64,000 nt of DNA from a virus, in the IMG/VR virus record IMGVR_UViG_3300045988_167796, positions 68,032 through 132,031 of that record, one strand, 5' to 3'. Positions 4,872 through 56,131 of this stretch are shown here, piece by piece; the first letter of the stretch is position 1, and the number at the start of each line of letters is the position of its first letter. The notes beneath the pieces are model-generated. The model was given only the letters and a program-made list of their open reading frames with translations. It made no database searches and was not told where the DNA came from. Made by a program: the position numbers and the translations under genes.

Positions 4872-4897
4872 AGGAGAGTGCAAGCTCTCCTTTTATA
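4871..4897 (+). terminator. rho-independent terminator closing early operon
   Basis: aaggagag-tgcaag-ctctcctt stem-loop followed by TTTTAT. Confidence 0.5.
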
Positions 4898-4940
4898 GGA
4901 AGATGGTGTATATAATATAGACATAAATAATAATGATGTA

Positions 4941-9810: not shown

Positions 9811-9865
9811 ATGTGTACCTCCTTTACTTATTGATGCTTTATTTTAATAAAAATAATGTCATGTA

Positions 9866-9894
9866 TTGACAATTGTATATACATTGTTTAAAAT
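9866..9894 (+). promoter_or_regulatory. sigma-70 promoter TTGACA-17-TAAAAT
   Basis: consensus -35, good -10. Confidence 0.55.
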
Positions 9895-9936
9895 AGACTA
9901 TAGTGGCAGAAAATTTATATTTTGGGGGAAACCTTT

Positions 9937-38340: not shown

Positions 38341-41300
38341 TTACAATATTCTTCTTGGAACTCCGGCAGCATAAGCATCTTTTGCAATATTATTACTTAT
38401 CTTTCCGGTCATACTGTTAACGAATTCTCTGTTATTTACAAGCTGTTTCGATAATGCCTTTAAATCATCCATTACATTTTTGTCAACATTACCATTCACA
38501 GTAATCAAAGAATCATAATGTACTATAGGAGCATTTTCCGTATTATTGTAATATGTAGCATATTTATTTATGTTCTCACTAAATGCTTTCATAATATCCA
38601 TAGAAGGCTTTATGTTCTTCGCAAATTCTTCAGGTATTACATATTCCCCAGGTTTAATTCCAATGACTCCTTTATCGCCATTTGCTATCACAGCTTCACC
38701 GAGGAATCCTAACATATTAGCCGGGATATAGTTGTCAACGATACCACCTTTTGAATATCCTGCTTTCTTTAACTGGTTTAACAACCAAATATTCTGAGTA
38801 GCAGTACCAGAATACGTGCCAGATCCTTTCAGATTCTTCCAAAGTTGTGTTCTAGCAGCGTTATCAGATTTATAGCCATAATAAGCCATTCTATCTACGA
38901 TCGATACATCCTTGCTAAGGCTACTATTACCTTTCATGGATGTATCTTTTGCAATACCAGACCATATATCTGTATTTGTTGTTCCTGTTGTTGTATTATT
39001 TCCTTCTAAACTTCCAGTCCACTTCAACTCATCATTTTGAGTCGCGTTGTTATTATCTGCCAAAGTCCCGAACGTGCCAGGCTTTTCAACAACTGTAACT
39101 TTACAAGTAGATTTCTTTTTAGAACGTGCTTCCTCAACAGTAATTATTGCTGTACCTTTAGAGACAGCAGTGACAACACCTGTATTTAGAACTTTTGCAA
39201 CTTTGGGACTGCTTGAAGACCATGTGAAATTCGCAGGAGCATTTTCCGGAATGACATTTGCTTTTAAAGTGATCTTATCACCAATAAACATCGTCACTCT
39301 TGACTGGTCTAAAATAACCTTATCGGCTGAAACATATTCAATACCAGTTCCACCACCTAAAGAGTTATTACTGTTATTCACAGTATCTGCAACTTTAGAA
39401 GTGTTTCCAGATGTGAGAACTTTAAGTCCAGTATTATTGGAAGCCTGAACTGCTGTATCTGCTTTTGTATCTTTAGCGCTTCCGGTATTGAACACATTGG
39501 AAACTTCCTCATATGCAGATTTTGATTGCTCTAAAACTTCTTTTAGCTTCTGTTCAACAGTATCAAGTGAATCATTAAAAGTTTCTGATAACACAAGACC
39601 ATGGTTCTCAATAATAGAATCAAGATTACTAAAAGTACTTTCATACGATGTAGTTACTTGTGCAAGCATACTGTCAATAACCTGATTCTGCATCTCTGTG
39701 TTAGTACGCAGAGAATTAAGAGTGTTATCAAGATTCTTGTCAATATCTTCACTCAACTGATCGTATGCATCAGACTTCATTTCATATTCATGATTGTATC
39801 TGGTTTCTTCAAGTTCATCCTCTGCATCTGCAATCTGAGCCTTGATTTTAGCAAGACGGGCTTTTGAACTGGCATCCGTAACACCTTCAAGGGCTGCTGC
39901 CTGTGCTTTCAGAATATTCAGTTCCTTAGTCTGATTTTTCAGTTGTTTATCATAATCATGATATTTTTTCTTAGCGTCCAGAGCGTTCTTGTATCCAGTA
40001 ATATCTTCCTGCATTAACTCATTTTTCTTCTGTAGCTGTTCCTCATACAAATCAAGTATAGACTGCTTATATGTTTCAGCAGCTTTAGCAGAGTCAAGAA
40101 GACCATCCTGTAACTCTTTCAGCTTTTCATTATATTCTTCCTGTGACCAGTTACCGTTTGCATATTGCTCATTGAGATTATCAATCTGCTTTCTGTAATT
40201 CGCCATCTTGGTTTTGGTGGCATCAATACTTTCCTGGAGAAGCAGGAGATTAGTCAAGCCATTTTCTGTAAATGAACCATCCGAATCAGAAATGAATGTA
40301 TCAGAATTCATAAGGTCACGAAGAGAATCATATTCAGACACAAGATTGCTCAATTTTTCCTGTGCATCATCAAACGGCTTCCAACGAAGTTCCATCATTG
40401 AATTCTTAAGTTCTTCATTATCAGCAGAAAGATTCAATATTTCTACGTCAAGCTGAGAAATTTCATCTGCATACTTCTGATATTCTTCGCTGTTATATGC
40501 ATATTTCTCCATGCTCTTAGCTTTTTCTTCACGTTCCTTATACAGAGCTGCAATCTGACTGTTGTTATTTTTAATCTGCTCTCTGTAGTCTTGCTCAGTA
40601 ACAGTATAACCATCAGCAACTTCTTTATAATTCGTAGCAGCATCCAACTTATCTGATACGCGACTATATTTATTAACACGCCATTCCGTAATCTGTTCTC
40701 TGGACTCATCCAGTGTTTTCGTCCATTCTGTAAGGGATGTCATACTCTCATATAAAGCCCGTCCAACACCAGTAAGATTGGCCTGCATTTCGCGGTATGC
40801 TGTTGATTCTGTACCATATTTCTTACCGTATTCTGCAAGTTGCTTTTTATATGCATTGTATTCAGCCTTCAGCATTGCAATATTGCTCTTTTCATATGCA
40901 ATCTGTTGCTGGATCAGTTTTGTATAGCCGGAACCAGGAGAAATGGTCATACCGCTTGTTTCACGGTAATCCAATTTTGCACTGACTAAATCTTGACCTG
41001 TTTTATTCTTATTTATATAAGAATCGTATACATCCAATATATTAGAAAGTTTCTGTGCGGCAAGTTCTACCTGTTCAGCATATTTTTCTTCTGCTGACTG
41101 ACGGGCGGCAATAGCCTTGTCATACCATTTTGAATATGCTTCCACCTTGCTCAGTTCGTCTTCTGAAAGCTGTTGGATGTCTACAATACCTTCTTGAACT
41201 TTCTTTTTTAGTTCAGCAGATAATCCAACCTGAGAAGCAACATTGTCGGCATAAGCCATGTATTTTTTATAAGCATCTTTATAATATTTTACTTCTTTGC

Positions 41301-44300
41301 CTGTTAACGTTTCGGCAAGAGTGATATTCTTATTCTTCTGATTGATAGAAGACTTGTTTTCGGAAATTGCCTTGTACAGGTTGATCTTACTTTCTGTTCT
41401 GGATATGAGTGTTTCAATCCAATCTTTAACATTATCAGAGATTTTCTTGATAAGGTCTGAGAGTGCTTCGCTGGCTGTTGAAATAGAATCTGCAGAAGAA
41501 GAAAGATCGGAAGCGGCTTTTTCTAAGTCTTTAGAAGTCGATGAATCTGATGTTGTATTTTTATTACCGCCAATAGTTTGTCCTGAACTATTTATGGTAG
41601 CATAAGCAGGCATACCATTATAAGCTAATGTACCGGACGCAAGGGCACGAGCATGTCCTTTTGCTTTACCATGCTTCATAAGATCTTCTGTTTGTTGTGC
41701 GTTTAAAACTATGTCGCCTTTCTTTAATGCCTGTGTATGCATTCCAGGAGGTAGTAACATCCATTTATCCCCACGGACAATTGACTCACGACCTAACTCA
41801 TTTACTAAAGCAACTTCGTCATGTTCTAATGCTACTTTTCCATTTGAATATGCATTCTTATAATTAATTGCATTATATGCTGTTCCATAAGCATGTGTAG
41901 GAACTGAAGATGGAGACGACATTGTACCATGAGCAACCCCATTACCACTTTTATTTACTGTGATAGTAGCAGTTCTATGATTTATGCTTGCAACAGCTGC
42001 ATTTACTGCATTTATAAGATTGTTTGTATTACCATCAATTTTAATGGTTGCAGTTCTATGATTAATGTTTGCAACAGTTGTGTTTGCTACATCTATAGCC
42101 TGAGATGGGTCTGCATCAATTTTAATTTGTGGTTCTTGGTCTTTTGCGTATTCTACAGTTTCGTCTACTTTTTCTTTTGCTGGCTCATTATTACCATCAA
42201 TCGTAATTTCTGTAGTATTTTGGCTTGCAAGTAATTGACCAAATTGGTCTTCAGCCATCCTGACTGTAACAGATGCATCTGCGCCTTCTTTAATTGTCTG
42301 TAATGACTCACGTATTGCAGATAATTTTTCTGTAGCACCTTCATCATTAACGTCAACACCACATTTAACAGCAAATTCAGGATCTTCCATACCAAGTAAA
42401 GCATCAATATCGCCATTTGTATTATTTAAAGCAAGATTTACTTTTTGTTGTATTTCAGTTTGTTCTATCAACGAACATATAGCATCGTACTCATCTGTTT
42501 CTGGAACAAGTTTTGCTTTGATATTAATCAGATCGGTATATCTTTGTGAAAGCTCGTCATCTGACATTTCAGAAATATTGGCGGTCAAATCAATATTTGA
42601 ATTAATCTGACCGAGTTCCTGCATCCTTTCAAGCTTAGTAATACCATCTTGTACAGACTGAGTATCAACATCAACTTTTGGTTTTAAAGCACCAATAGCT
42701 TGTAGTGCGTTCAAAAGCTGAGATACTTGTTCTTGTGATAATCCGGCCTGATCTGCAATTGCCTGTAAAGCATCTTCGGCAGCTGTCATATCACCAGATA
42801 CATCATATTGTCCATTTTCTAATTTGATATTCTGTAAATCTTCTGCACTATACTGGCGCAGTACATCGAAATAGTCTTTAAACGCATCTTTTTGTTCTAT
42901 CAACTTAAATTTTGTTGTGTCAAAATTCTTAGTTTCTTCTGGTGATAAAGATAATCCTAAGTCTTCAGCTGATAATGGATTTTCTATAGAACCAATTCCT
43001 GCGTCTTTTATTGCTTGATTTAAAGAAGTTTCGTCAACTTCGAAGTTGGTAATTTTTACGCCGTACTCTTTTCCAAGATTCTCAATTACTTTACCAAGAC
43101 CTTCTGCTAATTGAGTATTTCCGGATTTTTCAGCTTCTTTTCTTATTTTATTTAAATAAGATACTTGATCTTTTAAACTTGAAAGACCTTCTGCATATGA
43201 TTCTGCGGAAACCTGTTTATATGTTTCTGTAGCAGTGGTCAAATCAATAACCTGACCTTTTAACTGCTCAATAACTGCCATTTGATCTGCAATTGCTGTT
43301 TCGGAAGCGCCTGATGATTGCATTTCAGCAAGTTTTGCATACGCATCTACGAGTTTTGTATTTGCTTCCTGTATCTTTTCTGTTCCTTCTGTTTCAGAAA
43401 GAACAGTAGTATCAACAAATCCATAATCCTGTGTTTTAGCAAGAACATCATTAAAGAATTCTTGTCCCATATCCATATCATAAGCTGCCTTTTTAGCATC
43501 TTCGATATTAATTTTCCAAGACTTTACTCCGTTAGCAAGAGTTTCATATGTAGCGTATCCTTTTTTATTTAAATCTTCTAAGAAGTTTACTACACCTTTA
43601 GAAGAATCTTCTGTAAGATATCTTTGAGCTTTTGCATAGTTTTCTGCAAAGTTAGCAGCGTCTTCAAAACCGTTAGGAGATAAGTACTTAGCAACAGTTT
43701 TGAAATCATCTGTTCCAACTAAGTTTTTATCATATGCTTCTTTTGCGGTCTTTAAATCAGAAATCATCTGATCATAATTACTTCCGGCATTCTTTGTGTT
43801 CTTAGCATCTTGAATTGCCTGGAAATCAGACATTTGTTCCATCTGAGATTTATACTGAGCAAAATATTGAGCTTGTCTCTGCATTAATCCTTCAAGATTA
43901 CTTTGCATTGCCTGTAATTTAGAATCAGTATTTCCTAATCCTATTTGATCCTGATAAGACTTAATAGCATCTTTCTGACGGTTGATTTCTTCAGTAAATT
44001 TACCTTCCTGAATGGAATTTTGTTGATTGATAAAATCTTTAAGAGCAGAAGTGTTGACTTTTACACCTTTAGCTGATAAATAGAATACAGAAGACGGATC
44101 GTATCCTTCAAGGTCACTAAACTGAGTATTCAGCGCTTTTATTGAATCATTCGTTAATCCTGTTTCAGACTGAAGTTCGCTCATTGCAGATGAGAGAGAA
44201 GAAGAGAGATTTTCAGCATTTGTCACCGGAAGATTCTGCATAGCTTCAGTCCACTCATACTGACTAACAAGCATATTATCTATAGATGCATTGCATTCAT

Positions 44301-46638
44301 CTATAGCATTTTGATATTCTTTTGCTTTTTCAGGATTATCGTTATACGACTTTTTAAGATTCTCATTTTCTTTAATTTGCTCTTTAAGATTTGTAATCTG
44401 ATCATTACCATTAGATATTAATTTCGCATAGTCTGATTCATTTACTTTTAATCCAAGAGCAGTTTTATTATCCATATCTGACTGAATTCGAGAAGCATCA
44501 TTTTGAATATATGATAAATCTTTTCCAAGATCTGCTAATTTCTGTGTATTGACATCAATTTCAATCTGAGGTCTTAATGATTCAATTTTGGCAATCCATT
44601 CAGTAATTGTTGCATATGCCATTGACGGATCTGCTGAAAGCTTCAAAATTGCAGTCATTGCGTTTTCATCACCGGCATATTGTGACATTAATTTATTAAT
44701 GTTATTACCAAGAATTTCCTTATTAAAATCAGAACCGGCAGAAGCAAATAAATTGTCACTTATAATTTTCTGGATATTATCAAAGCTAATATCCGACATA
44801 TTCACAGAATCCAATAATGTCTGTATGTATTTCTCAACATTCTTCTTTTTTTCAGGATCTGTTATATCTTTAGTTTTTTCACGAATACCAATAAGTGACT
44901 CGTTAAGATTTGATAATGTTAATTTAGACAATCCTTGTTCAAGATTATCTGTCTCAGATGCAAGTTCCGGAAATTGTTGAATCAAATCTGTAATATCAGA
45001 ACTCTTAAAGTCTCCAGATTTCAAAGAATCCATAGCGGATTTTATAGATGATATATTAGACTGTAATTTGTCTGTAATATCTTGAATAGTAGAAGGAGCC
45101 TCTTCGCCTTTATCTAATAAATCCTCTAAGGAGATTGGATTTTCTTGAAGCACTTCTTTTGCTGCATCTTGTGCTTTCTTAAAATTATAAGAAATATCTT
45201 CGAGATTCCAATCAGAACCATCAAGATTTTGAGTTGAATAATAATTCCAGAAGTTTTCTATTTCTTTATCTGTCTTATCATTAAAGAAATCAAATAAACT
45301 TGGCCCAAAAACATTTTCGTCTTTTAAGAAAATATCTTTTAAGTTTTGTTTGATTCCATCTATATTATAAGCATTTGGATCCGCTATATACATGATTTGA
45401 TCTGCTAAAGTTTCAGCACTAATTCCTGCTTTATCTAAAGCATCAGACAATCCTTCTATTTCAGAAATTTTTGATATAATAGCGTCTTTTCCTTGTTTCT
45501 TCCCTAATCTAACAAGACTTTCTTCGACATTTTCAAATTTTGCTTTTGCAAATATGTTATTGATTTTTTCTACTTGAGATTTTGCCGCGTCTACACCTGT
45601 AGAGTAATTATTGTTCATATTATTTACTCTATCAACAATGCTCTCATATCCCGTCTTAACATTTCCGTTTACATCATAAAAATACGAAGCAGATTCATTA
45701 ATATCTGTTATATTCTCAGATATCTTATTATTAAGATCGCTAATCTCTTTTTCATATTCTTTAATTTGTCTTGTATTAGAATTATATTCGCGTTTATCCC
45801 AGAATTTTGTTAGATCTAAATTTGCTTGTTGTTTATAAAGTTCATCGCGTCTTTGCTGAACAAATTTCATTCTTTCGATCATACTGTTTGTATCATCAAT
45901 AATATCATTATTTGTATACGTTTCAGCACCATCTTCTGAGAATGTATATTTTTTATCTTTTGTTTCTAACTTTGTTTTTGCGTCTTTTGTAGCTTGTTCT
46001 TCTTGGATAGTTGCAATTTTTTGTTTTATTGCAATTTGCGCTTCCAGAAGGTCATTTTGTGTTTGCAAGTTACTTAATTCTGCCTGATCAACAATAGATA
46101 AATTTTCCATTGCATTTAATTCAGCAATTCTTGATTTTGTTGTTTCAAGCTGAGAATTTAATGAATCTAATTCTGATTTTGTAGATGTGAATGTACTGGA
46201 AGATTCGTCAAAATGCTTATTTGCAGTTTTTTGTGTGAAAACAAATTTATCATCTAATTTTTTAAATACTGCAAATGCCGCTGCAGATGCTACAATAGCT
46301 CCTGTAAGAAGAGGAAATGCAGTTACAACGCCTTTTATAACCGTCCACAGTCCAGTAAGAGCATTCTTACCAGTGCTAGCCATTTCTGCAAGTTTTCCAC
46401 CGACACCAGTTGCTGCGGTACCGACATTATTGAGAGCAGCTTCTGCTTCAGCTATATCACCAAGATTGAATGCTTTATATAATGCTTGAACGTTAGTATC
46501 TTTACCAAGATTTGAATATTTTGATAACAATTCTGCTGCTTTTTCTACGGAACCAGTCCCTTTTAACAGTTTATATAAATCATCTATGTTAGAAGTCTGT
46601 ATTGCTTTTATAATTTTCCCGATATTACTTAATGACAA
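38341..46638 (-). CDS. tape measure protein, distal segment (2765 aa; hydrophobic TMP core, long coiled coils, C-terminal Big_2 domain)
   Basis: N-term GVGGKLAEMASTGKNALTGLWTVIKGVVTAFPLLTGAIVASAAAFAVF typical TMP hydrophobic block; annotated TTG start has no RBS and the frame is open upstream to 46683. Confidence 0.6.
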   Translation of the reverse strand: MSLSNIGKIIKAIQTSNIDDLYKLLKGTGSVEKAAELLSKYSNLGKDTNVQALYKAFNLGDIAEAEAALNNVGTAATGVGGKLAEMASTGKNALTGLWTVIKGVVTAFPLLTGAIVASAAAFAVFKKLDDKFVFTQKTANKHFDESSSTFTSTKSELDSLNSQLETTKSRIAELNAMENLSIVDQAELSNLQTQNDLLEAQIAIKQKIATIQEEQATKDAKTKLETKDKKYTFSEDGAETYTNNDIIDDTNSMIERMKFVQQRRDELYKQQANLDLTKFWDKREYNSNTRQIKEYEKEISDLNNKISENITDINESASYFYDVNGNVKTGYESIVDRVNNMNNNYSTGVDAAKSQVEKINNIFAKAKFENVEESLVRLGKKQGKDAIISKISEIEGLSDALDKAGISAETLADQIMYIADPNAYNIDGIKQNLKDIFLKDENVFGPSLFDFFNDKTDKEIENFWNYYSTQNLDGSDWNLEDISYNFKKAQDAAKEVLQENPISLEDLLDKGEEAPSTIQDITDKLQSNISSIKSAMDSLKSGDFKSSDITDLIQQFPELASETDNLEQGLSKLTLSNLNESLIGIREKTKDITDPEKKKNVEKYIQTLLDSVNMSDISFDNIQKIISDNLFASAGSDFNKEILGNNINKLMSQYAGDENAMTAILKLSADPSMAYATITEWIAKIESLRPQIEIDVNTQKLADLGKDLSYIQNDASRIQSDMDNKTALGLKVNESDYAKLISNGNDQITNLKEQIKENENLKKSYNDNPEKAKEYQNAIDECNASIDNMLVSQYEWTEAMQNLPVTNAENLSSSLSSAMSELQSETGLTNDSIKALNTQFSDLEGYDPSSVFYLSAKGVKVNTSALKDFINQQNSIQEGKFTEEINRQKDAIKSYQDQIGLGNTDSKLQAMQSNLEGLMQRQAQYFAQYKSQMEQMSDFQAIQDAKNTKNAGSNYDQMISDLKTAKEAYDKNLVGTDDFKTVAKYLSPNGFEDAANFAENYAKAQRYLTEDSSKGVVNFLEDLNKKGYATYETLANGVKSWKINIEDAKKAAYDMDMGQEFFNDVLAKTQDYGFVDTTVLSETEGTEKIQEANTKLVDAYAKLAEMQSSGASETAIADQMAVIEQLKGQVIDLTTATETYKQVSAESYAEGLSSLKDQVSYLNKIRKEAEKSGNTQLAEGLGKVIENLGKEYGVKITNFEVDETSLNQAIKDAGIGSIENPLSAEDLGLSLSPEETKNFDTTKFKLIEQKDAFKDYFDVLRQYSAEDLQNIKLENGQYDVSGDMTAAEDALQAIADQAGLSQEQVSQLLNALQAIGALKPKVDVDTQSVQDGITKLERMQELGQINSNIDLTANISEMSDDELSQRYTDLINIKAKLVPETDEYDAICSLIEQTEIQQKVNLALNNTNGDIDALLGMEDPEFAVKCGVDVNDEGATEKLSAIRESLQTIKEGADASVTVRMAEDQFGQLLASQNTTEITIDGNNEPAKEKVDETVEYAKDQEPQIKIDADPSQAIDVANTTVANINHRTATIKIDGNTNNLINAVNAAVASINHRTATITVNKSGNGVAHGTMSSPSSVPTHAYGTAYNAINYKNAYSNGKVALEHDEVALVNELGRESIVRGDKWMLLPPGMHTQALKKGDIVLNAQQTEDLMKHGKAKGHARALASGTLAYNGMPAYATINSSGQTIGGNKNTTSDSSTSKDLEKAASDLSSSADSISTASEALSDLIKKISDNVKDWIETLISRTESKINLYKAISENKSSINQKNKNITLAETLTGKEVKYYKDAYKKYMAYADNVASQVGLSAELKKKVQEGIVDIQQLSEDELSKVEAYSKWYDKAIAARQSAEEKYAEQVELAAQKLSNILDVYDSYINKNKTGQDLVSAKLDYRETSGMTISPGSGYTKLIQQQIAYEKSNIAMLKAEYNAYKKQLAEYGKKYGTESTAYREMQANLTGVGRALYESMTSLTEWTKTLDESREQITEWRVNKYSRVSDKLDAATNYKEVADGYTVTEQDYREQIKNNNSQIAALYKEREEKAKSMEKYAYNSEEYQKYADEISQLDVEILNLSADNEELKNSMMELRWKPFDDAQEKLSNLVSEYDSLRDLMNSDTFISDSDGSFTENGLTNLLLLQESIDATKTKMANYRKQIDNLNEQYANGNWSQEEYNEKLKELQDGLLDSAKAAETYKQSILDLYEEQLQKKNELMQEDITGYKNALDAKKKYHDYDKQLKNQTKELNILKAQAAALEGVTDASSKARLAKIKAQIADAEDELEETRYNHEYEMKSDAYDQLSEDIDKNLDNTLNSLRTNTEMQNQVIDSMLAQVTTSYESTFSNLDSIIENHGLVLSETFNDSLDTVEQKLKEVLEQSKSAYEEVSNVFNTGSAKDTKADTAVQASNNTGLKVLTSGNTSKVADTVNNSNNSLGGGTGIEYVSADKVILDQSRVTMFIGDKITLKANVIPENAPANFTWSSSSPKVAKVLNTGVVTAVSKGTAIITVEEARSKKKSTCKVTVVEKPGTFGTLADNNNATQNDELKWTGSLEGNNTTTGTTNTDIWSGIAKDTSMKGNSSLSKDVSIVDRMAYYGYKSDNAARTQLWKNLKGSGTYSGTATQNIWLLNQLKKAGYSKGGIVDNYIPANMLGFLGEAVIANGDKGVIGIKPGEYVIPEEFAKNIKPSMDIMKAFSENINKYATYYNNTENAPIVHYDSLITVNGNVDKNVMDDLKALSKQLVNNREFVNSMTGKISNNIAKDAYAAGVPRRIL

Positions 46639-46660
46639 TATGATAAATAAGATGTATAAT
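46632..46660 (+). promoter_or_regulatory. sigma-70-like promoter ATGACA-17-TATAAT for cargo genes
   Basis: hexamers upstream of aaaaaaggagag RBS. Confidence 0.45.
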
Positions 46661-46686
46661 ATAAATAAAAAAGGAGAGCGATTTCA

Positions 46687-47112
46687 ATGTTAATAAAATG
46701 TCCTGAGTGTGGTAAAGAAGTATCAGATCAATCTGAAGCATGTATTCATTGTGGATATCCGCTGTTAAAAAACAGGAGATCGTCTGTGACTGAGTACCAT
46801 GGAGAATGCCCATTCTGTCATGCAATAGATAATTGGAGAATAGATACTGAAAAAGGAGAAGCTATTTGTAATAAATGTGGATGGCGAGAAACTATTGATG
46901 ATACGCAGTGGAAAATATATTGCAAGCTACAAAGAGAACGTGAACAAAAAGAATCCGAAAAAAAACAATCCGAGAATCTTCCAAAATGTCCAAAATGTGG
47001 TTCAACATCTATAGGAACAAAGAATAGAGGATATTCTCTTATCTGGGGATTTTTAGGATCCGGAAGCCCTAGAAATGTATGCCAGAAATGTGGCTATGAG
47101 TGGAGGCCGTAA
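46687..47112 (+). CDS. triple zinc-ribbon protein (3x CPxCG...CxxCG)
   Basis: strong RBS; three CxxC..CxxC pairs. Confidence 0.55.
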
Positions 47113-47134
47113 ACTTACCAAAAGGATATACACT

Positions 47135-47896
47135 ATGATTACAAATAATGAAAACGACAGAAGAATCATTAAAGAAACATACGATTATTTCAATAAAAAC
47201 GCTTATAGCATACAAGAAATGAGTATTGATAATATATATGTATGCAATGATATTCAAAACGACATTAATATATTTTTAAACAATGATCATATAAATAAGC
47301 AATGTAATGGTCATACTATTTATAAAAATGCAAAAAAAACTGAAGATATAATTATTTTAGTAGAATTGCGTGAAAATATGCCAGATAACATAATAACATT
47401 ATTCCACGAATTTATTCATGTGTATGATATCAAGTTGTTCTTACAAAAATATCATACTCTTGATAATGATTATTTTTATGCATATACAGTATGGAGTGAA
47501 TTTCATGCTTGTTATATAAGTGAAAAATTATTAATAGAATACTATAAAAATAATGGTATCCCAAATATAATAAATGATTTTTTAAGTACAAAAGAAGAAC
47601 AAATCAATGAAATACTTAAATATATAAGAATTGCTCACAACCGCGAGATGTCAATATTTGATAAAATGAATATTTTTGCTAAGCTTTTTCTTTTCGGGTA
47701 TTATGAAGATTGCGGCTATCATTTTGTATATGAATTTATAGACCATTTTTATAATGATTTAGAAGATCGTATTAAAAATTATAATATTACAAATTATTTA
47801 TATCAATGTTTGGAAAATGATTTTAATATTGACACTATTACTTATTTTAAAGAGTTGATTTTTGTTAAAGATATTAGCGACTCATCTACTTCATAA
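47135..47896 (+). CDS. HExxH-motif protein, possibly ImmA/IrrE-like metallopeptidase (ORF track start 47075)
   Basis: HEFIH motif; aaaaggat RBS before ATG 47135. Confidence 0.45.
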   Translation: MITNNENDRRIIKETYDYFNKNAYSIQEMSIDNIYVCNDIQNDINIFLNNDHINKQCNGHTIYKNAKKTEDIIILVELRENMPDNIITLFHEFIHVYDIKLFLQKYHTLDNDYFYAYTVWSEFHACYISEKLLIEYYKNNGIPNIINDFLSTKEEQINEILKYIRIAHNREMSIFDKMNIFAKLFLFGYYEDCGYHFVYEFIDHFYNDLEDRIKNYNITNYLYQCLENDFNIDTITYFKELIFVKDISDSSTS

Positions 47897-47910
47897 TACG
47901 TAAAACATTA

Positions 47911-47945
47911 AAAGAGCAGATTATTCTTTCTGCTCTTTATCATCT
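47911..47945 (+). terminator. rho-independent terminator (10-bp perfect stem)
   Basis: aaagagcaga-ttattctt-tctgctcttt. Confidence 0.55.
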
Positions 47946-48036
47946 TTATAAAATATTTTATTATCATCAATACATATTCCATGACATATAATTGTGCTAG
48001 AATCGATTATTTGATATCTATCTTTACATATAAACA

Positions 48037-48501
48037 TTAATTCCAATTCACCATCCATGATATCACCTCTTCAATTGTCATTTCTGGAAATACTGTTTTC
48101 ACTATTTCAAAAGTATGCTTTTTTACTATTGTTTCATTTATCTCTTGAAAATAATAATGTACTAATTCTTCAATAAAAATAAATAATTGCATATGTTTAT
48201 TATTGCATCTAATGATTTTTTCCATTGAATAAATAATCAATGGCATACATCTCCCATATGTTGTAATAATTTCTTCTGTCACTGAAAAACTTCCATCTTT
48301 AGAAAAAATTAAATTAACCGGAAGATACTTAGAAGGATCTATTTGTTTTTCGTACAACGATCTGCTTAAAGCTTCTAATCCTTTTGTAAATAAGCATGCC
48401 AACTGTTCTGGAACTTCATATAAAGCATTCATATGAATCCTATCAGAAAAATATGGCGGAGCTATAGGAGCATAAGTTTTTACTGAATTATCTATTCTCA
48501 T
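48037..48501 (-). CDS. hypothetical 154-aa protein inside TMP intervening sequence 2
   Basis: ORF track; aaaggatt RBS. Confidence 0.4.
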   Translation of the reverse strand: MRIDNSVKTYAPIAPPYFSDRIHMNALYEVPEQLACLFTKGLEALSRSLYEKQIDPSKYLPVNLIFSKDGSFSVTEEIITTYGRCMPLIIYSMEKIIRCNNKHMQLFIFIEELVHYYFQEINETIVKKHTFEIVKTVFPEMTIEEVISWMVNWN

Positions 48502-48911
48502 ATTGATATAATCCTTTGTATTATTTGTATGATTATATCATAAATAATTAAATATGCAAACTGTTTTTACCTTCATCAGCAAACGGCAGAAGAGTAGTGC
48601 CGAGTGGAATACCACTATTTTTTTACCTTGGAACATTCATTAAAAGCATATACAATTATGGCATGTATATACTCTCAGGAAGGGTGCTCTCTCTACACTT
48701 CCTAACTTTTTATATGTTTCCCTCGCCATTGCTTGCGCAACTTCTACTAACGTATCACATATTACTAAACGTAAGTTAGGTTGGCTCGTGCGTCACCGCG
48801 GAACATAAATATATTTCTATAAATATGCTTTTGTTTCATCCTTTTTCGCTGTAGCGGCTTCGACGAATTAATCCTGTATTTATTTTATGCCGATCATAAT
48901 CACTGCATTGA

Positions 48912-49385
48912 TTACCACGCCATTATGTGGTTCTCTTTACAATAACAGCCCCATAAGTTATATCGGGAATAACAGCCTGGATTTGGCTGAGCTACGGCAT
49001 TGCTAAGTCCTCCGGACTTAAAGAATTTAAATAATTGTGAAAGACCATTTTTACCAAATGATAAGCCAGCGATTGTGGCTACCAAAGTTTTGATTGGTCC
49101 AACTGTTTGTGCTAGATCTGTAAACGCCTCTGTAAGACTTATTACAAAATCCAGTATGTTTTTAGTTCCTGCAGAATCATAGAATGACAACCAGAACTCA
49201 TCCATTTGAGCTTTTATTTTAGTTATCTTACCTGTAAATGATTCTTCGTATTTTGCCTGATTCTCAAGTGCATTTCCTTGTGAATTTGTTGCTTCTGTAG
49301 CTAAAGACATAGCATCTGACCAGGCTGTAAGTATATTTTTGAATTTTGATGACTGTCTTGTCGATAAATTAAATACGATTCGCAA
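48912..49385 (-). CDS. tape measure protein, middle segment (about 130 aa of TMP-like sequence; 3' end probably intronic read-through)
   Basis: TMP-like hydrophobic GPIKTLVATIAGLSFG; no RBS; frame open upstream to HE stop. Confidence 0.45.
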   Translation of the reverse strand: MRIVFNLSTRQSSKFKNILTAWSDAMSLATEATNSQGNALENQAKYEESFTGKITKIKAQMDEFWLSFYDSAGTKNILDFVISLTEAFTDLAQTVGPIKTLVATIAGLSFGKNGLSQLFKFFKSGGLSNAVAQPNPGCYSRYNLWGCYCKENHIMAW

Positions 49386-49418
49386 GATCGTACCGATATT
49401 GTTAATTATTTTCTCCTT

Positions 49419-50333
49419 TTATTCTTCTATAAAAACTCCATATTTTATAAACATATCAAATAATATATCATCCATAAATAATTGGTCCCAGTATGGAATT
49501 CTAATAAGTTTAATATTATTTTGTTTACAGTAATCTGTTTTTATTTTATCTCTTCTTTGAACTTCTGCAAATCTGTTATTTGCTTCTTGTTCTGACATTT
49601 TATTTCCTATTCTAATTGATTTATGATGGAATTCTCCGTCGTATTCTATAGCAATATTATATTCATCTAAATAATAATCAAACGGAAGAGTGTATTTATC
49701 CTTACAATCGCTAAATCGTTTTTCTCTTGTGTATTTTAAATTCCACATATCCAGTATTTGTCCGATCATATTTTCGTAGAAATGACTTTTACAATGAGGA
49801 CAACTTGTGCTTTTTAATAAATTTCCTGAAAACTTTTCTTGAACACCAACATTTTTATGTTTGTTACATATATATTTTATATATGTATGGTTATTTTTAC
49901 TATAAGATTCTACAAATGTAAAATCTCTTTTCTTGCATTCTTCCTTCCAATAATCATTATTTTTTTTATGAGAATTTATTGTCTTTTCTCTTCCGCACAT
50001 AAAACATCCTATTCCTCTTAATAAGTCACATAAATTAATTTGCTGTATGCCATAATCAGGATGTTGTTTACATATATACTTCATTTTAGTTGTGTAATTT
50101 ACATATACTGTATCAAGTAATGTATAACCCTTTTTATCAAATAATTCTTTTACTTCTTGATATGTATAAATTTTTGTATTGTTTACAGTTTTTTCTTTTC
50201 TAATTAAACGAAGTCTTCTTCTTTTAGCTTTTATAGATTCTTCTGTAGTTTGAAAAAATTCAGACAATTCTTTATCTGTTTTATCTTTCCATAATTCTTT
50301 TAATTTATCTTCGTTTTCTTTTGTCCACTTCAT
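49419..50333 (-). CDS. intron-encoded homing endonuclease (tandem Zn-finger-like modules + PD-(D/E)xK/DUF559-like nuclease)
   Basis: two repeats KYICxxHxxxGxQ....LL..xxCxxC; C-term IEYDGEFHH...KTDYCKQNNIKLIRIPY; aaaggag RBS. Confidence 0.55.
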   Translation of the reverse strand: MKWTKENEDKLKELWKDKTDKELSEFFQTTEESIKAKRRRLRLIRKEKTVNNTKIYTYQEVKELFDKKGYTLLDTVYVNYTTKMKYICKQHPDYGIQQINLCDLLRGIGCFMCGREKTINSHKKNNDYWKEECKKRDFTFVESYSKNNHTYIKYICNKHKNVGVQEKFSGNLLKSTSCPHCKSHFYENMIGQILDMWNLKYTREKRFSDCKDKYTLPFDYYLDEYNIAIEYDGEFHHKSIRIGNKMSEQEANNRFAEVQRRDKIKTDYCKQNNIKLIRIPYWDQLFMDDILFDMFIKYGVFIEE

Positions 50334-50353
50334 ATATTATCTCCTTTGTATTA

Positions 50354-50548
50354 TCAATTTTTTGCATAAAAAATCGCCAGGGCTTTAAATAGCTCTGACG
50401 TTTTCGTGTACTTATATGTTGTTACTTCATTTATTACTTTTGTAAACGAAGGTTTTATACCGATACTCAATAAATATTCCTTTTCTGGAGTATATTGAGT
50501 AGAATATTCTTTATCATATTTTTTCATTATTCTATCATTAATTAACAA
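50354..50548 (-). CDS. small ORF within intron (uncertain)
   Basis: ORF track only. Confidence 0.2.
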   Translation of the reverse strand: MLINDRIMKKYDKEYSTQYTPEKEYLLSIGIKPSFTKVINEVTTYKYTKTSELFKALAIFYAKN

Positions 50549-50902
50549 TATCCTTATATTTTCATATAAGTCTAGACTATATCTTCACCTTCAGCATTAC
50601 CTGTTCAGGGTACACCATTTCCATTTAAGGGATTTTCACCTACTTCATTTGCGGTTAAGCCGTACTCCTATTGTTATAGATATTTATTCTCTAGTCTATA
50701 ACCCGACATGGGGATAGTCGTTAAGCGTTCTCCATATATAAAAATTATATTTAGGAGCTTCGTTGTGGATTGCCTATTGTTGCATCTTCTTATTTTTTAT
50801 AACATTCATATTACTTTTCAATAATATTGTAGTATAAAAAGCTTTAAGGGTTCCCACAGTTAGATGTATTCTTAATATATATTTCTATATATTCAGCCCA
50901 AA

Positions 50903-53900
50903 TTAAGCTGCTACGTTATATGAAATGTTACTTTGCTGTGCGTCGGACAGAGTATCCCACTTAGCACTCAGTTCACTCAAAATAACGTCAAGATCACGGA
51001 ATGATCCGTCAACATTGTATACTTCAATTCCAACTTCATGAAGAGATTTAGAAGCGTTAGATAATTCTTCATTACTTACATCTGAAGCATATTGCGGCAT
51101 TTTACCGACTTTTGATATTCTAGTAACAATTGTCTTTATTGCGTTTCCGATGGATCCACCATCTTCACGTGTTCTTTCGGCCACTTTTGCAGAAACAGCA
51201 GCTAACTGTTCATAAGACATACCTGCATCATATGCAACCTGACCAGAAGCTTGCACAGCATCAGAAATAACCTTTATTCCACGCGCATAATCTATTGCGA
51301 CGTTCGATGAAATCTTATCCAATACATCAACTACATGCATAGAAGCATCTGCAGCACTTTGAGATCCATCTTCAAGCATATTGAACTGCTGTAAAATGCC
51401 TTGTACCTGGTCAGCAGCAGTAGAAGTATCAACGCCGCTTAAGTTACTCAGAATAGCTGTAGGTTTTGCAGTTTCATTAATCTCTTCTGCAGTGGTATTC
51501 ATATTTGCATAAATCTGATAGATATCCATTGCATTTTCAAGAGACATAGAAAGATCCTGCGCCATATCAATAGCAGATTGACCTAAACTATTAAGCTGTT
51601 CTTTGGTAATATCCATTGTATAGCTAATAGTAGTAAGATTATCATCATATGCTTTAAGCGTTGAAAATCCTTGTTGAAGTTGATTTATCATTGTAGATAT
51701 AATTCTATAGCTACTTACATATGAAGTAACCATTTGCATAATGTCTTTAAGACTTCCACCAGCAATACTTCTTAATGCACTTCCAAATGTTTTGAATGAT
51801 GCATTAGCTTTTGATTGCTCTGTAGATGTAATACGAAGTGCATTATTATATGTTTGTAATGTACCAGTTACAGTTGTGATTGCTCCTGCTTCGTTTTGAA
51901 ATTGAATTGTCGCAGTACCTGCATTTTCATTTACTTTAGATGATACTTCCTTACCAAGAGAATTTAATTCTGCATATTGTTTTACTCCTGCAATAACATC
52001 AGATATATCTTTTGTAATACCTTCGCTACCAGAAATGAGAGTTCCTTTACTGTTAGTCTTATCATATGCTTTTGCATTTTTAGAAAATTCTTTGATTTTA
52101 TCTGACAGTTCATCTAACTGTTTTATTTTTTCATCAGTGTCAGTTGTATCGTTTGATAAAATACCATTAAAAGCTTCTGCAAATGAATTAATTTTTGTAG
52201 TGTAAGATGCTACTTTATCTGAAGAATTAGCAAGCTTATTTAAATTTGAAATTTGCTCTTCAATGTTAAGCGCTTTTCCGCCAAATCCATCTTTCCAAAA
52301 AGCCATTGTGTTTGATGCTTTTTGACTTGCTTCTATAAACTTCTGGCTATATGTAGACGCATCTCCGTTATAATCTCTTGTTAATTTATTAATTTCTTCC
52401 TGTACGCTAGCAATATCATTTTTTGCCTGAGCAGAAATAGATCCTGTTTCTTTTATCTTAGATGCAAATGTTTCTAACTGATTAGTAATTTTCTGATTAT
52501 TAGATGCTAATGAATCAGTAGTTTTTGAATCAAAAATAGACTGAATATTACCAATAGCATTTTGCTGGAAATCCTGTCCGTAGATATTATTAACTTCTTT
52601 TTTTAAACTTTCATAAGATGCTCTAACAACTTCCATTGCATATATCTGTTTATCAATATCTCCTGAAAGAAATTGAGAATTATTTTTACCGGACATTTGT
52701 AGAATTTTATTCTCAGAATCTCTCATAGCAGTGTAAGATTTCTTCATAGCTTCTACAAGATTATCATTGTTGTTCTTTGAATTCTCAATTGCCTTTGTAT
52801 ATGATTCATTATACTTATCTACTTTATCAGGACCTAAGATACTTTTATTTTTAGATAAGAAATCACTTTTATAAAAAGTATCTACCTCGGACTTTAATGC
52901 GGAAACTTTATTTTTTGCATTTTCAATTTCAGACGTATAGTCTGCGAACGGATTGTTTGCTTGTTTACCTTGAAGAGAGAATAATTCATTCTGAGCTTTT
53001 TCTAACTCTTTTACTTTTGCAAGAGCCTTATCGTATTGATCAATAATCGGTTTCTTTACTTCTTGATTATCCTTTGTATTTTTGAGATTGTCTGTAGATT
53101 TTCTTAAGTTTAATTCTGCATCTCTATATGCATTAGCAATGTCTTTTGAAATAAATTTATCTTTATCTTTAAAAAGATCATTACTAATAATTGAGTCTAA
53201 AGATTTTTTGTCAGATTTAATATTTTTATTTAAATCCTCAATTATTTGCGAATTTTGTTGATCAGAAGATTTACTTATTTCTTTTGATAAATCATTTTGT
53301 AATTTAGATATATTCTTTGAAAGATTTATCGCTTGTTTTACTTTGTTTGTTATGTATTCATATATCGCATCAACATTATTAAAAGCAGAAGTGCTTTCTG
53401 TAGGCAGGTTTATATTACCAAAATTTTCAGATGCATTATTCTTGTCAATAATTGAGAGCCATTTATCCCAGTTAGATTTAAAGCTTTCTGTAACAATTGG
53501 TAATGATTGTTCTGATTTATTTAAAGACTTGAATTTTGCATCAAATATAGATAAATCAAGATTTGTAGATGCACCAGATAATATATTACGAAGATTTTCT
53601 ATTTGAGACGCAACTTGATCAGAATACTTGAAAGAGTCTTTCAATCGTTGTTCAAGATCATTCAGTTCTTGTTCTTTTGCCTTTTTCTTTTCATCAAGTA
53701 AAGCATTCTTTTTATTAGAATCAGATATTCTTTTGTTGTCTTTTTCTAAATTTTGCTGTTGCTTTATTTGTGTATTACATTCAGAAATTGAGTCGCGTAG
53801 TTTACCAGCAGCTTCTGCTTGTTCGTAGATACCAGATGCATCCTTTAATTCTTCATTTAAATCTAACATCCTACCTACTGACTCAGACAATTCGTCTGAT

Positions 53901-56131
53901 GGATCATTTAAAGCATTAAAAGCACTAACAACGCTACTTACTGTTGATTGCAAATTATTAACACCAAATAAATCTTTCTGATTTGTTTTAGAAGAAGAAA
54001 ATATCTTTTTCTTTTCTGCTTCAACACGTTCCATGGATTGAGCAAGACCGTCGATTTCATCAACAGAAAATATATGTTTTAATCCCATATATCCATCTAA
54101 TTGCATTGCATTAATTTTGCCGCCCATTTGAAGGTCTATATTAGCAAGGAATTTATCTAATTTTTCATTTGCTTTTTGTACTTTTACAGATTCTTTTTCT
54201 GCTTCTGTTTTAAGACGCTTCATGTCTTCAACAATACGTTCTGAAGATACTTCTAATGTTCCTTCATCTGTAGGAGAGTAAGTGGTAGAAGTGGTAATAT
54301 ATGCATTTTGATCTTTTTCTGTTTTTACTTGAGTATGCGAACGAATATTCCCATCAGAATCCTTTATAGTTATTAGCTTATCAGAATCTCCTTTTGCAGG
54401 AATAGCGTCTTCTGTGACTGCTTTCATTTCTTTTCGTTCTTTTTCTATTGCTTGTGAAGACTTCTCTGCACCGGCAGCAACCATCTGATTCGCACTATTA
54501 AAGTTTTCTTTTGCAGTAGCAGCTTTTCCAGCAGCTTTTTCAACTTTCTCAAATGCTTTTGATTCATTTTCAAGCTGTTCATTTGACTCTTCTGTATTTG
54601 TCTGTGGTAACGCTGGAGTTTGATTAGAAGCGTCAGGAGCATCAGGAGATTGACTTGGTTTATGAGAAATTGGAGTAGAAGGAGTATTTGATACAGGTTT
54701 TTCTTCTGATTTTTGCTTATCTGTTACTTTAGGTTTTTCTTCTTGTTTTTTCTTTTTAGAATTTGCCGTTTCAGTTTTTTTCTTCTGTTTAGCAACCTCT
54801 TGTTTCGTTTCATCAAGTTTCTTTTCTGATTCAGCTTCCTGGTTATTCGCATCTACGATTGCCTTTGCTTCTTCTTGCAAAGGTTTTGTGTCAACTTTAG
54901 GAGCCTGAATTTCTGCCAGCTTTTTAGAGAACTGCTCGTCTGTCATAAAAAGAACATCAGAAATCGTACTTTTAGCCAATTCGTATTCTTTACTAAGTCC
55001 TTGAATGTAATTTTCAATTATATCATTAGGCTTATTACCATGTTTTTTATATACAGCATAATCTCCTAAGAAATTCATAATTTTAGTAGGAGTTTCTAAT
55101 TCATCCAACGCGATTTCAAGATCCTTCGCTTCTCTTGTTTTACCTTGATAATCTTTTAATATCTTGTTTACATTCTTTCTAGCTTGCTCTGGTTTTTGTG
55201 TACGAAAACGAGACATTTTACCAAACATTTTATTATATTCATTTTGATTTTTTAATGCCTCTTTTGCATTGTCGCTATATGAATACTCTAACGCTGCTAT
55301 TCCTTCATCTAGTTTTTTAGTATACTTTTCAAACTGTGTAGAACTAAATTCTTTTCCTTCATTTACACTATTAATATACTTATGGATTCCAGATCCATCA
55401 TAAATACTCTGTATTAATCCTTGCCTTATTTTATCATATTGAGATTTTGGATCTACTTTATTAATTTTTTTTATAACATCGCTTCGTAATTGCTTACCGT
55501 CATCTTTATTTATTTCATTTAATGTTTTTATCAATGAATAATATAATTGAGCTGAATCTCTATACTTCTTAATTGCATCCGGATTCATTGATGAAATATT
55601 TGGAAACGAACCTGTGCGCTGAGTGAATTCACTTTCTAATTGCGTAATTGCCTTTTCAATTCTTTTTATTTTTGTATATCTATCTGTGAGTTCTGTTCTT
55701 TCTACTTCAGATAGTGTCTTACCTATTCTTTTTTCATAATTAGTAACATAAGTTTTTACTGTACGCTTTCCAGAATTGTCTAACTCTGGAACGTATTTCT
55801 CTATAGTGTTCCAATTTGCTTTTGGAGGTTTATTTCGAGTAAAGTCTTTATTAACGCTGTGTACAATTTTTTGTATTCCATCTTTAATTGTTTTTTCAGC
55901 ATTTTTAGAAAGAGTTGGCGTTACAAGAACTTCGATATCTTTAATACCTTCCAATTTTTTCAATCCTGATGTATCAACTTTTGGTTTTATATTCGATTTT
56001 TCTTTATCTAATTTTTCTAAACTTTCTGTAAGTTTATCTATCTTATTGATCGGCTCATCTAGTTTATTTGCAAGAATATCTCCGCCTTTTACTGCATCCG
56101 ATATGTCAATACCACCATTTTTTATTCCCAT
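50903..56131 (-). CDS. tape measure protein, proximal segment (1742 aa; K/E-rich coiled coil + TP901-family TMP core domain truncated at the C-terminus)
   Basis: C-terminal ~350 aa resemble the TMP conserved core (…AILSNLSGVDTSTAADQVQGILQQFN…VISDAVQASG…); ends abruptly …SNISYNVAA*. Confidence 0.6.
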   Translation of the reverse strand: MGIKNGGIDISDAVKGGDILANKLDEPINKIDKLTESLEKLDKEKSNIKPKVDTSGLKKLEGIKDIEVLVTPTLSKNAEKTIKDGIQKIVHSVNKDFTRNKPPKANWNTIEKYVPELDNSGKRTVKTYVTNYEKRIGKTLSEVERTELTDRYTKIKRIEKAITQLESEFTQRTGSFPNISSMNPDAIKKYRDSAQLYYSLIKTLNEINKDDGKQLRSDVIKKINKVDPKSQYDKIRQGLIQSIYDGSGIHKYINSVNEGKEFSSTQFEKYTKKLDEGIAALEYSYSDNAKEALKNQNEYNKMFGKMSRFRTQKPEQARKNVNKILKDYQGKTREAKDLEIALDELETPTKIMNFLGDYAVYKKHGNKPNDIIENYIQGLSKEYELAKSTISDVLFMTDEQFSKKLAEIQAPKVDTKPLQEEAKAIVDANNQEAESEKKLDETKQEVAKQKKKTETANSKKKKQEEKPKVTDKQKSEEKPVSNTPSTPISHKPSQSPDAPDASNQTPALPQTNTEESNEQLENESKAFEKVEKAAGKAATAKENFNSANQMVAAGAEKSSQAIEKERKEMKAVTEDAIPAKGDSDKLITIKDSDGNIRSHTQVKTEKDQNAYITTSTTYSPTDEGTLEVSSERIVEDMKRLKTEAEKESVKVQKANEKLDKFLANIDLQMGGKINAMQLDGYMGLKHIFSVDEIDGLAQSMERVEAEKKKIFSSSKTNQKDLFGVNNLQSTVSSVVSAFNALNDPSDELSESVGRMLDLNEELKDASGIYEQAEAAGKLRDSISECNTQIKQQQNLEKDNKRISDSNKKNALLDEKKKAKEQELNDLEQRLKDSFKYSDQVASQIENLRNILSGASTNLDLSIFDAKFKSLNKSEQSLPIVTESFKSNWDKWLSIIDKNNASENFGNINLPTESTSAFNNVDAIYEYITNKVKQAINLSKNISKLQNDLSKEISKSSDQQNSQIIEDLNKNIKSDKKSLDSIISNDLFKDKDKFISKDIANAYRDAELNLRKSTDNLKNTKDNQEVKKPIIDQYDKALAKVKELEKAQNELFSLQGKQANNPFADYTSEIENAKNKVSALKSEVDTFYKSDFLSKNKSILGPDKVDKYNESYTKAIENSKNNNDNLVEAMKKSYTAMRDSENKILQMSGKNNSQFLSGDIDKQIYAMEVVRASYESLKKEVNNIYGQDFQQNAIGNIQSIFDSKTTDSLASNNQKITNQLETFASKIKETGSISAQAKNDIASVQEEINKLTRDYNGDASTYSQKFIEASQKASNTMAFWKDGFGGKALNIEEQISNLNKLANSSDKVASYTTKINSFAEAFNGILSNDTTDTDEKIKQLDELSDKIKEFSKNAKAYDKTNSKGTLISGSEGITKDISDVIAGVKQYAELNSLGKEVSSKVNENAGTATIQFQNEAGAITTVTGTLQTYNNALRITSTEQSKANASFKTFGSALRSIAGGSLKDIMQMVTSYVSSYRIISTMINQLQQGFSTLKAYDDNLTTISYTMDITKEQLNSLGQSAIDMAQDLSMSLENAMDIYQIYANMNTTAEEINETAKPTAILSNLSGVDTSTAADQVQGILQQFNMLEDGSQSAADASMHVVDVLDKISSNVAIDYARGIKVISDAVQASGQVAYDAGMSYEQLAAVSAKVAERTREDGGSIGNAIKTIVTRISKVGKMPQYASDVSNEELSNASKSLHEVGIEVYNVDGSFRDLDVILSELSAKWDTLSDAQQSNISYNVAA

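Follow-up and report, generated by a model that had tools for sequence, protein, structure and literature searches.

Group I introns within tail tape-measure protein (TMP) genes are known from prophages of the Bacillus cereus group, where TMP-IVS1, IVS2 and IVS3 (self-splicing, group I, IA1/IA2) occupy three sites, up to two or three introns occur per gene, and related introns have been retargeted via P1/P10 (PMC2504315, Tourasse and Kolsto 2008). Here we report on the TMP gene in a stretch of 64,000 nucleotides (nt) of the IMG/VR virus record IMGVR_UViG_3300045988_167796 (positions 68,032 to 132,031 of that record), hereafter called the window, to which the coordinates refer. This gene very probably consists of three exons and two introns, and removal of both introns is predicted to yield, most likely, one protein of 4,626 amino acids (aa). 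Intron 1 is of the kind already known from the Bacillus cereus-group TMP genes. An earlier note on the window had called an intron in a TMP unusual, which was overstated in view of the three sites described in 2008 (PMC2504315). Shared with the Bacillus introns are a TP901-like TMP as host gene and presence or absence among related phages (PMC2504315); the differences concern the host, Bacillus and not gut Clostridia, the size of the TMP, more than 1,200 aa versus 4,626 aa here, and the complete, Vsr-like endonuclease of intron 1, the introns being compared by description only. The carrier is a large phage of the human gut with SPbeta-like tail genes and a contig of about 172 kb; its host is probably a Ruminococcus-like Clostridium.

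Two further systems resemble parts of intron 1. The intron in the endolysin gene lysK of Staphylococcus phage K/A5W and relatives likewise interrupts a structural or late phage gene and encodes an endonuclease, the HNH enzyme I-KsaI, around which the A5W annotation joins two pieces into the lysK coding sequence (CDS). Positions 50673..50551 of intron 1 (query 243-365, P8-P7'-P9) were 79.7% identical to this intron over 123 nt. In the lysK intron the HNH enzyme is encoded upstream of the conserved 3' core, whereas intron 1 encodes a Vsr-like candidate enzyme, has its open reading frames (ORFs) downstream of the whole core, in a P9 extension. I-Bth0305I, with its 'EDxHD' motif (PMC3239194), is like the 304-aa protein of intron 1 an intron-encoded phage enzyme with a C-terminal Vsr-like domain and conserved acidic and His residues. 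Its DNA-binding motifs are of the NUMOD/helix-turn-helix type, whereas the 304-aa protein has two zinc-ribbon repeats (DUF723/DUF4379/CapR-type).

Exon layout and intron 1

All genes in the TMP part of the window are on the minus strand, except two plus-strand ORFs (47075..47896 and 46687..47112). In the direction of transcription an ORF of 1,742 aa (56131..50903) ends with ..SNISYNVAA and TAA. It is followed by an ORF-free stretch of about 350 nt, a small ORF with a TTG start (50548..50354, listed length 64 aa), an ORF of 304 aa (50333..49419), an ORF of 157 aa (49385..48912), about 400 nt again without an ORF, an ORF of 154 aa (48501..48037) and, past the two antisense frames, an ORF of 2,765 aa (46638..38341). 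The starts of the 157-aa and 2,765-aa ORFs are TTG codons assigned by the ORF list. In the spliced model exon 1 comprises 50906..56131 (1,742 codons, the final GCA GCU encoding the end of ..VAA; its last U pairs with a guide G), exon 2 48994..49361 (368 nt, TRQSSKFKNIL...GGLSNA plus GU) and exon 3 38341..46627 (8,287 nt including the stop codon, opening with U AAU AUC GGG for (V)NIGK..). The doubly spliced CDS of 13,881 nt is in frame, has a single stop and was computed to encode 4,626 aa. Roughly 4600 aa had been obtained in the earlier note by adding three TMP segments; the total stands, but it requires the removal of two introns, and the second gap (48993..46628) had gone unnoticed. Some uninterrupted TMP homologues exceed 5,000 aa (P0187, 5,292 aa; P0197, 5,576 aa; P0237, 5,229 aa), and the spliced product therefore fits the size range of the family. 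If every one of the 4,626 residues contributed 0.15 nm to the measured length, a tail of about 690 nm would result.

The limits of intron 1 were obtained from an empty allele. The 84-kb contig L001 has flanking exons with 94-97% identity (about 96%) to those of the window and lacks the 1,544 nt of intron 1; across the site it reads ..AACGTAGCAGCG|ACACGCCAAAGT.., with the junction GCAGCG|ACACGC. Together with the group I rules of a U before the 5' site and a terminal G, this allele places intron 1 at 50905..49362 (minus strand) and the ligation at GCAGCU|ACAAGA. The predicted RNA junction ..CATATAACGTAGCAGCT|ACAAGACAGTCATCA.. encodes the peptide ..ISYNVAATRQSSK.., and the spliced window protein reads ..YNVAATRQSSKFKNIL.., the same as uninterrupted homologues at 66-98% identity. 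Such homologues, in which exon 2 joins exon 1, carry ..VAATRQ(S/T)SKFK.. at the intron 1 site, and the splice reproduces this motif (..YNVAA|TRQSS..); P0001, P0002, P0006, P0009, P0017 and P0025 are continuous across the site.

The interrupted region belongs to one domain. PF10145 (Pfam) matched residues 1518-1736 of the 1,742-aa ORF (profile 2-195 of 201), exon 2 lies under TIGR01760, and the spliced product gave a single TIGR01760 match over the junction (profile 14-340 of 349, 101 bits). The ORF starting at 49385 has no Shine-Dalgarno sequence, and 36 nt, open in the same frame, separate it from the stop codon of the 304-aa ORF. The earlier note had read this layout correctly: the 1,742-aa ORF ends at a stop codon inside a TP901-type TMP domain, here TIGR01760, a second ORF without a ribosome-binding site resumes the TMP in a frame open to the stop of an internal ORF, and domain continuity, a point it had raised for the spliced product, is uninterrupted. 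Its intron limits, 50902..49390, have to be moved to 50905..49362: the TAA is intron sequence, and past 49390 the intron continues for another 28 nt that include a hairpin and its terminal G.

The intron starts with UAAUUUGGGCUG and ends with ..UUUAUCG, and the entire catalytic core P1-P9 (50553..50915) is found in its first 350 nt. The Rfam model RF00028 (Intron_gpI) matched 50915..50553 in full length (model 1-253/253) with 43.8 bits and E = 4.4e-10 in a scan of 386 nt (50540..50925). The score falls below the curated gathering score of 50; rescaled from 386 nt to 64 kb, the E-value is still about 7e-8 and thus beyond chance. According to the Rfam alignment, P1 is formed by the exon sequence CAGCU (50910..50906) and the guide GGGCUG (50899..50894), with U 50906 opposite G as the U·G pair, and P7 by ACGACUA (50721..50715) and UAGUCU (50579..50574). 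These are the two P7-like strands to which the earlier note had pointed in its proposal of a group I-like intron, and both the pairing and the proposal are supported by the full-length model match and a core homologous to the lysK intron. The last base of the intron is G (49362). RNAalifold on the window, L015 and L018, which have the same intron, recovered P1, P2, P7 and P9; P2, P7, P8 and P9 were kept through double changes (18 of 74 predicted pairs in the three sequences), and the P7 pairing survived two of them (GACUA/UAGUC versus GAUCA/UGAUC).

The 3' end of intron 1 (49362..49405) consists of the UUAACAAUAUC strand, a P9.2 hairpin and the terminal G. The UUAACAAUAUC strand (49405..49395) pairs with its complement GAUAUUGUUAA (50552..50542), and the two ORFs of the intron therefore lie in a closed loop of 1.1 kb; both 11-mers are conserved in L014, L015 and L018. 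The P9.2 hairpin (49392..49374) is followed by 12 nt and the terminal G. Its stem covaries between the window, L014, L015 and L018 (UACGAU/AUCGUA, UAUAAC/GUUAUA, GUAGU/ACUAC, GCAUGA/UCAUGC), and the TTG at 49385, called as start of the next ORF, sits inside the hairpin loop.

Besides the low RF00028 score, two results weigh against the assignment of intron 1 to group I. Rfam scans of the whole window (64 kb, gathering score) and of 4.8 kb (E<=10) gave no match to intron 1; its detection solely in the 386-nt scan we ascribe to filter sensitivity. A P10 pairing was not evident for intron 1. A distant blastn search with the core matched 98 Vibrio and 139 Staphylococcus phage records, hence the core is widely shared. 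A megablast search with 7 kb against phage genomes found nothing beyond a match of 38 nt in the core (J8/7-P7', 50573-50610), 97% identical to an unannotated region of Vibrio phage 1.187.O (MG592553.1 93312-93349). The evidence supports 50905..49362 as a group I intron of the mobile type common in phages of Gram-positive bacteria, with predicted splicing.

The 304-aa ORF of intron 1 (49419..50333) encodes a homing-endonuclease-like protein with two zinc-ribbon repeats and a Vsr-like nuclease domain, and an AAGGAG box is located 9 nt upstream of its ATG. The earlier note had likewise described two Zn-finger-like repeats and a nuclease tail behind a strong ribosome-binding site. The protein matched PHROG nuclease families (HNH, homing, intron-encoded), namely phrog_559 (1e-44), phrog_9084 and phrog_7140, and zinc-ribbon domains of the DUF723, DUF4379 and CapR families occur in its homologues, some of which bear the name Vsr endonuclease in their source records. 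Among 40 homologues the ribbon cysteines C110, C113, C178 and C181 were invariant, C88 and C156 nearly so, and D219, E230, D232, H236, D262 and K265 were invariant as well. The AlphaFold (AF2) model had a predicted local distance difference test (pLDDT) value of 93. In a fold search of the PDB with the C-terminal domain, E. coli Vsr (1vsr, 1cw0) took ranks 2-3 (probability 1.00, E 0.0099, template modelling score 0.61 relative to 1vsr), behind a mitoribosomal protein at rank 1 (E 0.0094). No match reached E <= 0.001, 3R3P was absent from the top 50 fold matches, and sequence searches of the PDB with the endonuclease alone and as profile had no match. A Vsr-like, PD-(D/E)xK-related fold of the C-terminal domain thus has modest fold-level support. 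The zinc ribbons would serve DNA binding and the Vsr-like domain catalysis.

Upstream of the endonuclease gene lies a conserved small ORF (50354..50527, minus strand) of 57 aa from its ATG, or 64 aa from the TTG at 50548; both genes would be accommodated in the long loop after P9. Its DNA is 95% identical between intron 1 and an intron of L001 (8676-8849) that has a different TMP site and a different endonuclease, and the ORF was also found in L014, L015, L017 and L018. Family searches with the 57-aa product gave no match. It could be a shared module or a helper protein of these introns.

In the proposed splicing reaction the guide GGGCUG would pair with CAGCU at the end of the exon, and the U·G pair would set the 5' splice site. 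Transesterification initiated by guanosine, with attack at the last intron base (G 49362), would ligate GCU and ACA and give ..YNVAA-TRQSS... The endonuclease presumably cuts intron-less alleles, whose repair would copy in intron 1 and a short stretch of the exon beside it. Between the spliced window and L001, 13 mismatches fall at -1..+32 of the junction and cause 0 amino acid changes, while 10 occur in the other 534 nt. This synonymous cluster beside the intron site may reflect co-conversion during homing or selection for endonuclease resistance.

The second gap in the gene

The remaining gap, 48993..46628 on the minus strand, is likely another self-splicing intron, from a group-I-like family that has diverged; this putative intron 2 has 2,366 nt, with a group-I-like ribozyme at its 5' end and the 3' end ..UCAUUAAG. 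Unspliced, the reading frame of exon 2 continues into ..GGLSNAVAQPNPG..*. Without exception, homologues with identities from 50% to 98% are interrupted after the corresponding ..N(A)V or ..KN(V/L/I), and the third coding block starts at G|UCAUUAAG|UAA(A/U)AUCGG in all ten relatives. The TTG at 46638 has no Shine-Dalgarno sequence. In L004, L006, L007 and L010 a TAG stands immediately before the conserved coding sequence SLSKIGN.., so that translation cannot start there. The predicted splice joins GU and U to a Val codon (..GGLSNAV|NIGKIIKAI..; RNA GCCGU|UAAUAUCGG), with the RNA junction ..CTTAGCAATGCCGT|TAATATCGGGAAAAT.. and the peptide ..SGGLSNAVNIGK...

An exhaustive HMMER search with spliced exon 2/3 was needed to find homologues at this junction, as a word-indexed protein search had two matches only. 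Many proteins end at the junction, many begin there and some span it. Uninterrupted, distant TMPs of 1,700-5,600 aa align over it (P0181, P0182, P0200, P0211, P0237 and others), and the closer relatives P0175, P0178, P0187 and P0197, which are 38-60% identical in exon 2, continue without a break. A search of viral contigs with the spliced exon 2/3 protein found no relative.

The 460 nt after exon 2 are conserved in the ten relatives and apparently structured. The ribozyme-like core (48530..48993, minus strand) has guides at 48969..48960 and 48893..48888 and the 5' strand of P7 at 48689..48685; its helices follow in the order P1, P3, P4(P5), P6, P7, P3', P8, P7', P9, with a P3/P7 pseudoknot. 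In an alignment of ten sequences 95.1% of the cells were paired and 22 pairs were compensatory; the covariation score was 0.297, compared with 0.159 ± 0.011 after shuffling (reached in 0 of 500) and 0.04-0.05 for slid partners. The structure had been derived from the same ten sequences and was hence re-tested on 11 independent sequences of a metagenome sister group. These were again paired to 95.1%, with 21 of 41 pairs compensatory and a score of 0.330 versus 0.168. P3 and P7 were 100% paired with one compensating column each, P4, P5, P6 and P8 had several each. The P7 column was AU in 4, CG in 4 and UA in 2 of the ten sequences, and AU in 10 and GC in 1 of the sister group, so that one P7 position showed all four Watson-Crick pairs over both sets.

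Both exons are matched by guides. The last six bases of exon 2 (..UGCCGU) pair with a guide about 100 nt into intron 2, UCGGCA (48893..48888) in the window. Exon and guide covary in relatives (UGCCGU/GCGGCA, AGCCGU/GCGGCU, AGUCGU/GCGACU) and in the metagenome sister group (AGAACCU/GGGUUCU, AAAACCU/GGGUUUU). The loop UUCCCGAUAU (48969..48960) is complementary over 10 bp to the start of exon 3, AUAUCGGGAA (46625..46616), and this second-hairpin loop paired perfectly with 10-12 bases from 2-4 nt into exon 3 in 9 of 9 loci, with three sequence variants. A U·G pair at the 5' splice site occurred in 8 of 10 close relatives and in most metagenome members, and the terminal base in the window is G (46628). 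In the window and L001 alone, the guide base opposite the splice-site U is U (the U-U loci); both also carry a TTG 11 nt upstream of the predicted start of exon 3, in place of the TAG of relatives.

Measured against canonical group I introns (RF00028), intron 2 has the same helix order, the P3/P7 pseudoknot, A-rich junctions after P3 and around P5, guides to both exons and, in most members, the U·G pair and the terminal G. It differs in the lack of P2, in an insertion of about 100 nt with three hairpins in the P1 loop, and in a P7 sequence unlike the usual ACGACUA/UAGUC. The guide to the 3' exon is a separate hairpin loop that forms 10-12 bp, whereas canonical introns use a few bases beside P1, and instead of a recognisable endonuclease the variable cargo frequently includes an antisense zinc-ribbon gene. 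In the proposed mechanism one guide would pair with the last six exon bases, the separate hairpin loop would bind the first 10-12 bases or so of the following exon, and GU would be joined to U to give ..SNAV-NIGK... The analysis shows sequence, structure, covariation, a presence/absence polymorphism and the continuity of the protein family; from these we infer splicing of both introns, its autocatalysis, and cleavage of the empty intron 1 site by the endonuclease.

The cargo of intron 2 comprises three ORFs. The sense ORF of 154 aa (48037..48501, minus strand) matched phrog_33355 (function unknown) at 6e-8 and has a homologue in the intron of L009. On the plus strand, an ORF of 273 aa (47075..47896) had no family match, and relatives have unrelated ORFs in its place. 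The other plus-strand ORF (46687..47112, 141 aa) matched Pfam Zn_Ribbon_1 and Zn_ribbon_3, with ribbons at the N- and C-terminus (MLIKCPECG...RCPKCGS..CQKCGY.W), and has its start codon some 60 nt away from the 3' splice site. It was present at the same place in every readable close relative (L001, L004, L006, L007, L009, L010, L013), matches to zinc-ribbon Pfam families were found there also in L005 and L014-L018, and 21 of 39 metagenome loci had the gene; in relatives its start is about 50-60 nt from the 3' end. Pfam, profile and PHROG family searches detected no nuclease or catalytic domain in any ORF of intron 2. The interior varies by locus, with total lengths of 1.6-3.3 kb and cargo of 1.1-2.8 kb, while the 5' ribozyme and, among close relatives, the antisense zinc-ribbon gene are constant. 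The zinc-ribbon protein could be a new mobility or maintenance factor, and in close relatives intron 2 looks fixed rather than polymorphic.

A search with the intron 2 core by blastn had no match in 50,697 phage records. A 19-nt motif of the core occurred in at least 90 metagenome contigs, mostly of human gut origin, and two genome matches were to a Ruminococcus and to a 'Melainabacteria' metagenome-assembled genome. In L095 (Ga0153972_1000166, 1796-4959) three cores of the intron 2 type lie within 3.2 kb, one with its 5' half replaced; they could be tandem or decaying introns. A literature search found no description of this family. We see an even chance that intron 2 represents a structural family of group-I-like introns outside Rfam, unmatched in deposited phage genomes and confined to a single site of very long gut-phage TMP genes, characterized by a P1 loop enlarged by several hairpins, a separate loop that clamps the 3' exon and the role of a carrier of exchangeable cargo genes.

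Weighing the alternatives

Several explanations of the second gap were rejected. A group II intron lacks its GUGYG start, domain V, an Rfam group II match and a reverse transcriptase; an intein is incompatible with broken frames and antisense genes inside; and stop-codon recoding or readthrough would face coding parts separated by 2.4 kb with antisense genes. Transposon inverted repeats do not account for the 10-bp complement, one copy of which is in a covarying hairpin loop and the other in conserved coding sequence outside the element. A 3' splice site 8 nt upstream (..SN|SLSNIGK) was also set aside, since the U conserved at -1 would be missing and the pairing with the 3' exon would no longer be adjacent.

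The alternative that survives best, though we consider it unlikely, accepts intron 1 only. The 2.4-kb gap would then be a gene island inserted between two real genes, one for a TMP (about 1,865 aa) and one for a tail protein of 2,765 aa, and its RNA a 3'-untranslated region, a regulatory or a processing element. Several observations weigh against a second intron or favour such an island. The cores of the window and of L004 had no Rfam match at E<=10, RF00028 included. The putative 5' splice site has U-U, not G·U, in the window and L001 and U-A in the L028 class, and intron 2 of L009 ends in A. Two antisense genes lie inside, against which the pre-mRNA must be read, and the cargo is variable. 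Translation of a separate protein from TTG 46638 is conceivable, a TTG stands at this position exactly in the two U-U loci, and gene callers everywhere split the TMP here. Moreover, the exon 2/3 linker is poorly conserved, and uninterrupted homologues therefore support continuity, not the exact splice point. Against the island stand two RNA guides that covary with both coding ends over five exon variants, a fold with the group I helix order and the P3/P7 pseudoknot, four relatives without a possible start codon, and uninterrupted homologues in which both parts are fused.

Very little weight was given to introns that are real but dead, in a decaying prophage that no longer makes its TMP as one protein. 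The mismatched U-U of P1 in intron 2 and the rearranged, prophage-like context of L004, with an integrase beside the TMP fragment, would suit this explanation, but 13.9 kb of exon sequence are open in one frame, pairings are kept in both ribozyme cores, the endonuclease retains all invariant residues and the near-identical L001 retains an exon 3 of 2,704 aa. Free-standing endonuclease genes between phage genes are common and TTG starts can be assigned at 49385 and 46638, yet three separately translated proteins with a selfish, free-standing endonuclease gene between them and no splicing are scarcely credible, since neither TTG has a Shine-Dalgarno sequence, the first lies in a covarying hairpin loop and the second is a stop codon in relatives, the endonuclease gene is flanked by a group I core whose splice-site bases are correct, the break falls inside one conserved domain continuous in relatives, and exactly 1,544 nt are missing from L001.

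An intron-rich gene family

Interruptions also abound in relatives of this TMP gene. P0028 ends at the site of intron 1, P0011, P0012 and P0030 enter another intron two codons past it, and P0039 and P0051 end after ..DY(A/S)K; P0030 begins with an intron ORF fused ahead of ..TAADQVQ. L001 has another intron (8275-9976) with a DUF4379 endonuclease in the same domain, 220 nt upstream of the intron 1 site (window ~51127). At least five intron sites of the family fall into a stretch of about 250 codons in a single domain. L014-L018, found via homologues of the endonuclease (53-58% identity), all have the same three-exon layout. In L004 (6595-10987) a tyrosine integrase and a 630-aa ORF are located directly upstream of a TMP fragment that starts mid-domain, which suggests a rearranged or integrated element. 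Upstream in the window, among tail and head genes, a RusA-like Holliday-junction resolvase ORF (57741-58235, minus strand; phrog_1682, 3e-16) directly precedes the TMP chaperone-like ORFs.

In gene calls these TMPs appear as two to four 'proteins' accompanied by 'hypothetical' fragments. Once the introns are recognised, single proteins of at least 4,600 aa are restored, which alters estimates of tail length as well as protein-family statistics for abundant gut phages. The TMP family presents a dense natural experiment, with many sites and related ribozymes that carry different endonucleases, and a tract resembling co-conversion is visible between two phages of about 96% identity. Intron 1 is a well-supported element of an ordinary kind, in a host gene that is extraordinary; the putative intron 2 is the more interesting object. 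If the reading of intron 2 is true, it would add a new structural variant of group I introns and would show that an intron in an essential structural gene can serve accessory genes as a stable landing pad.

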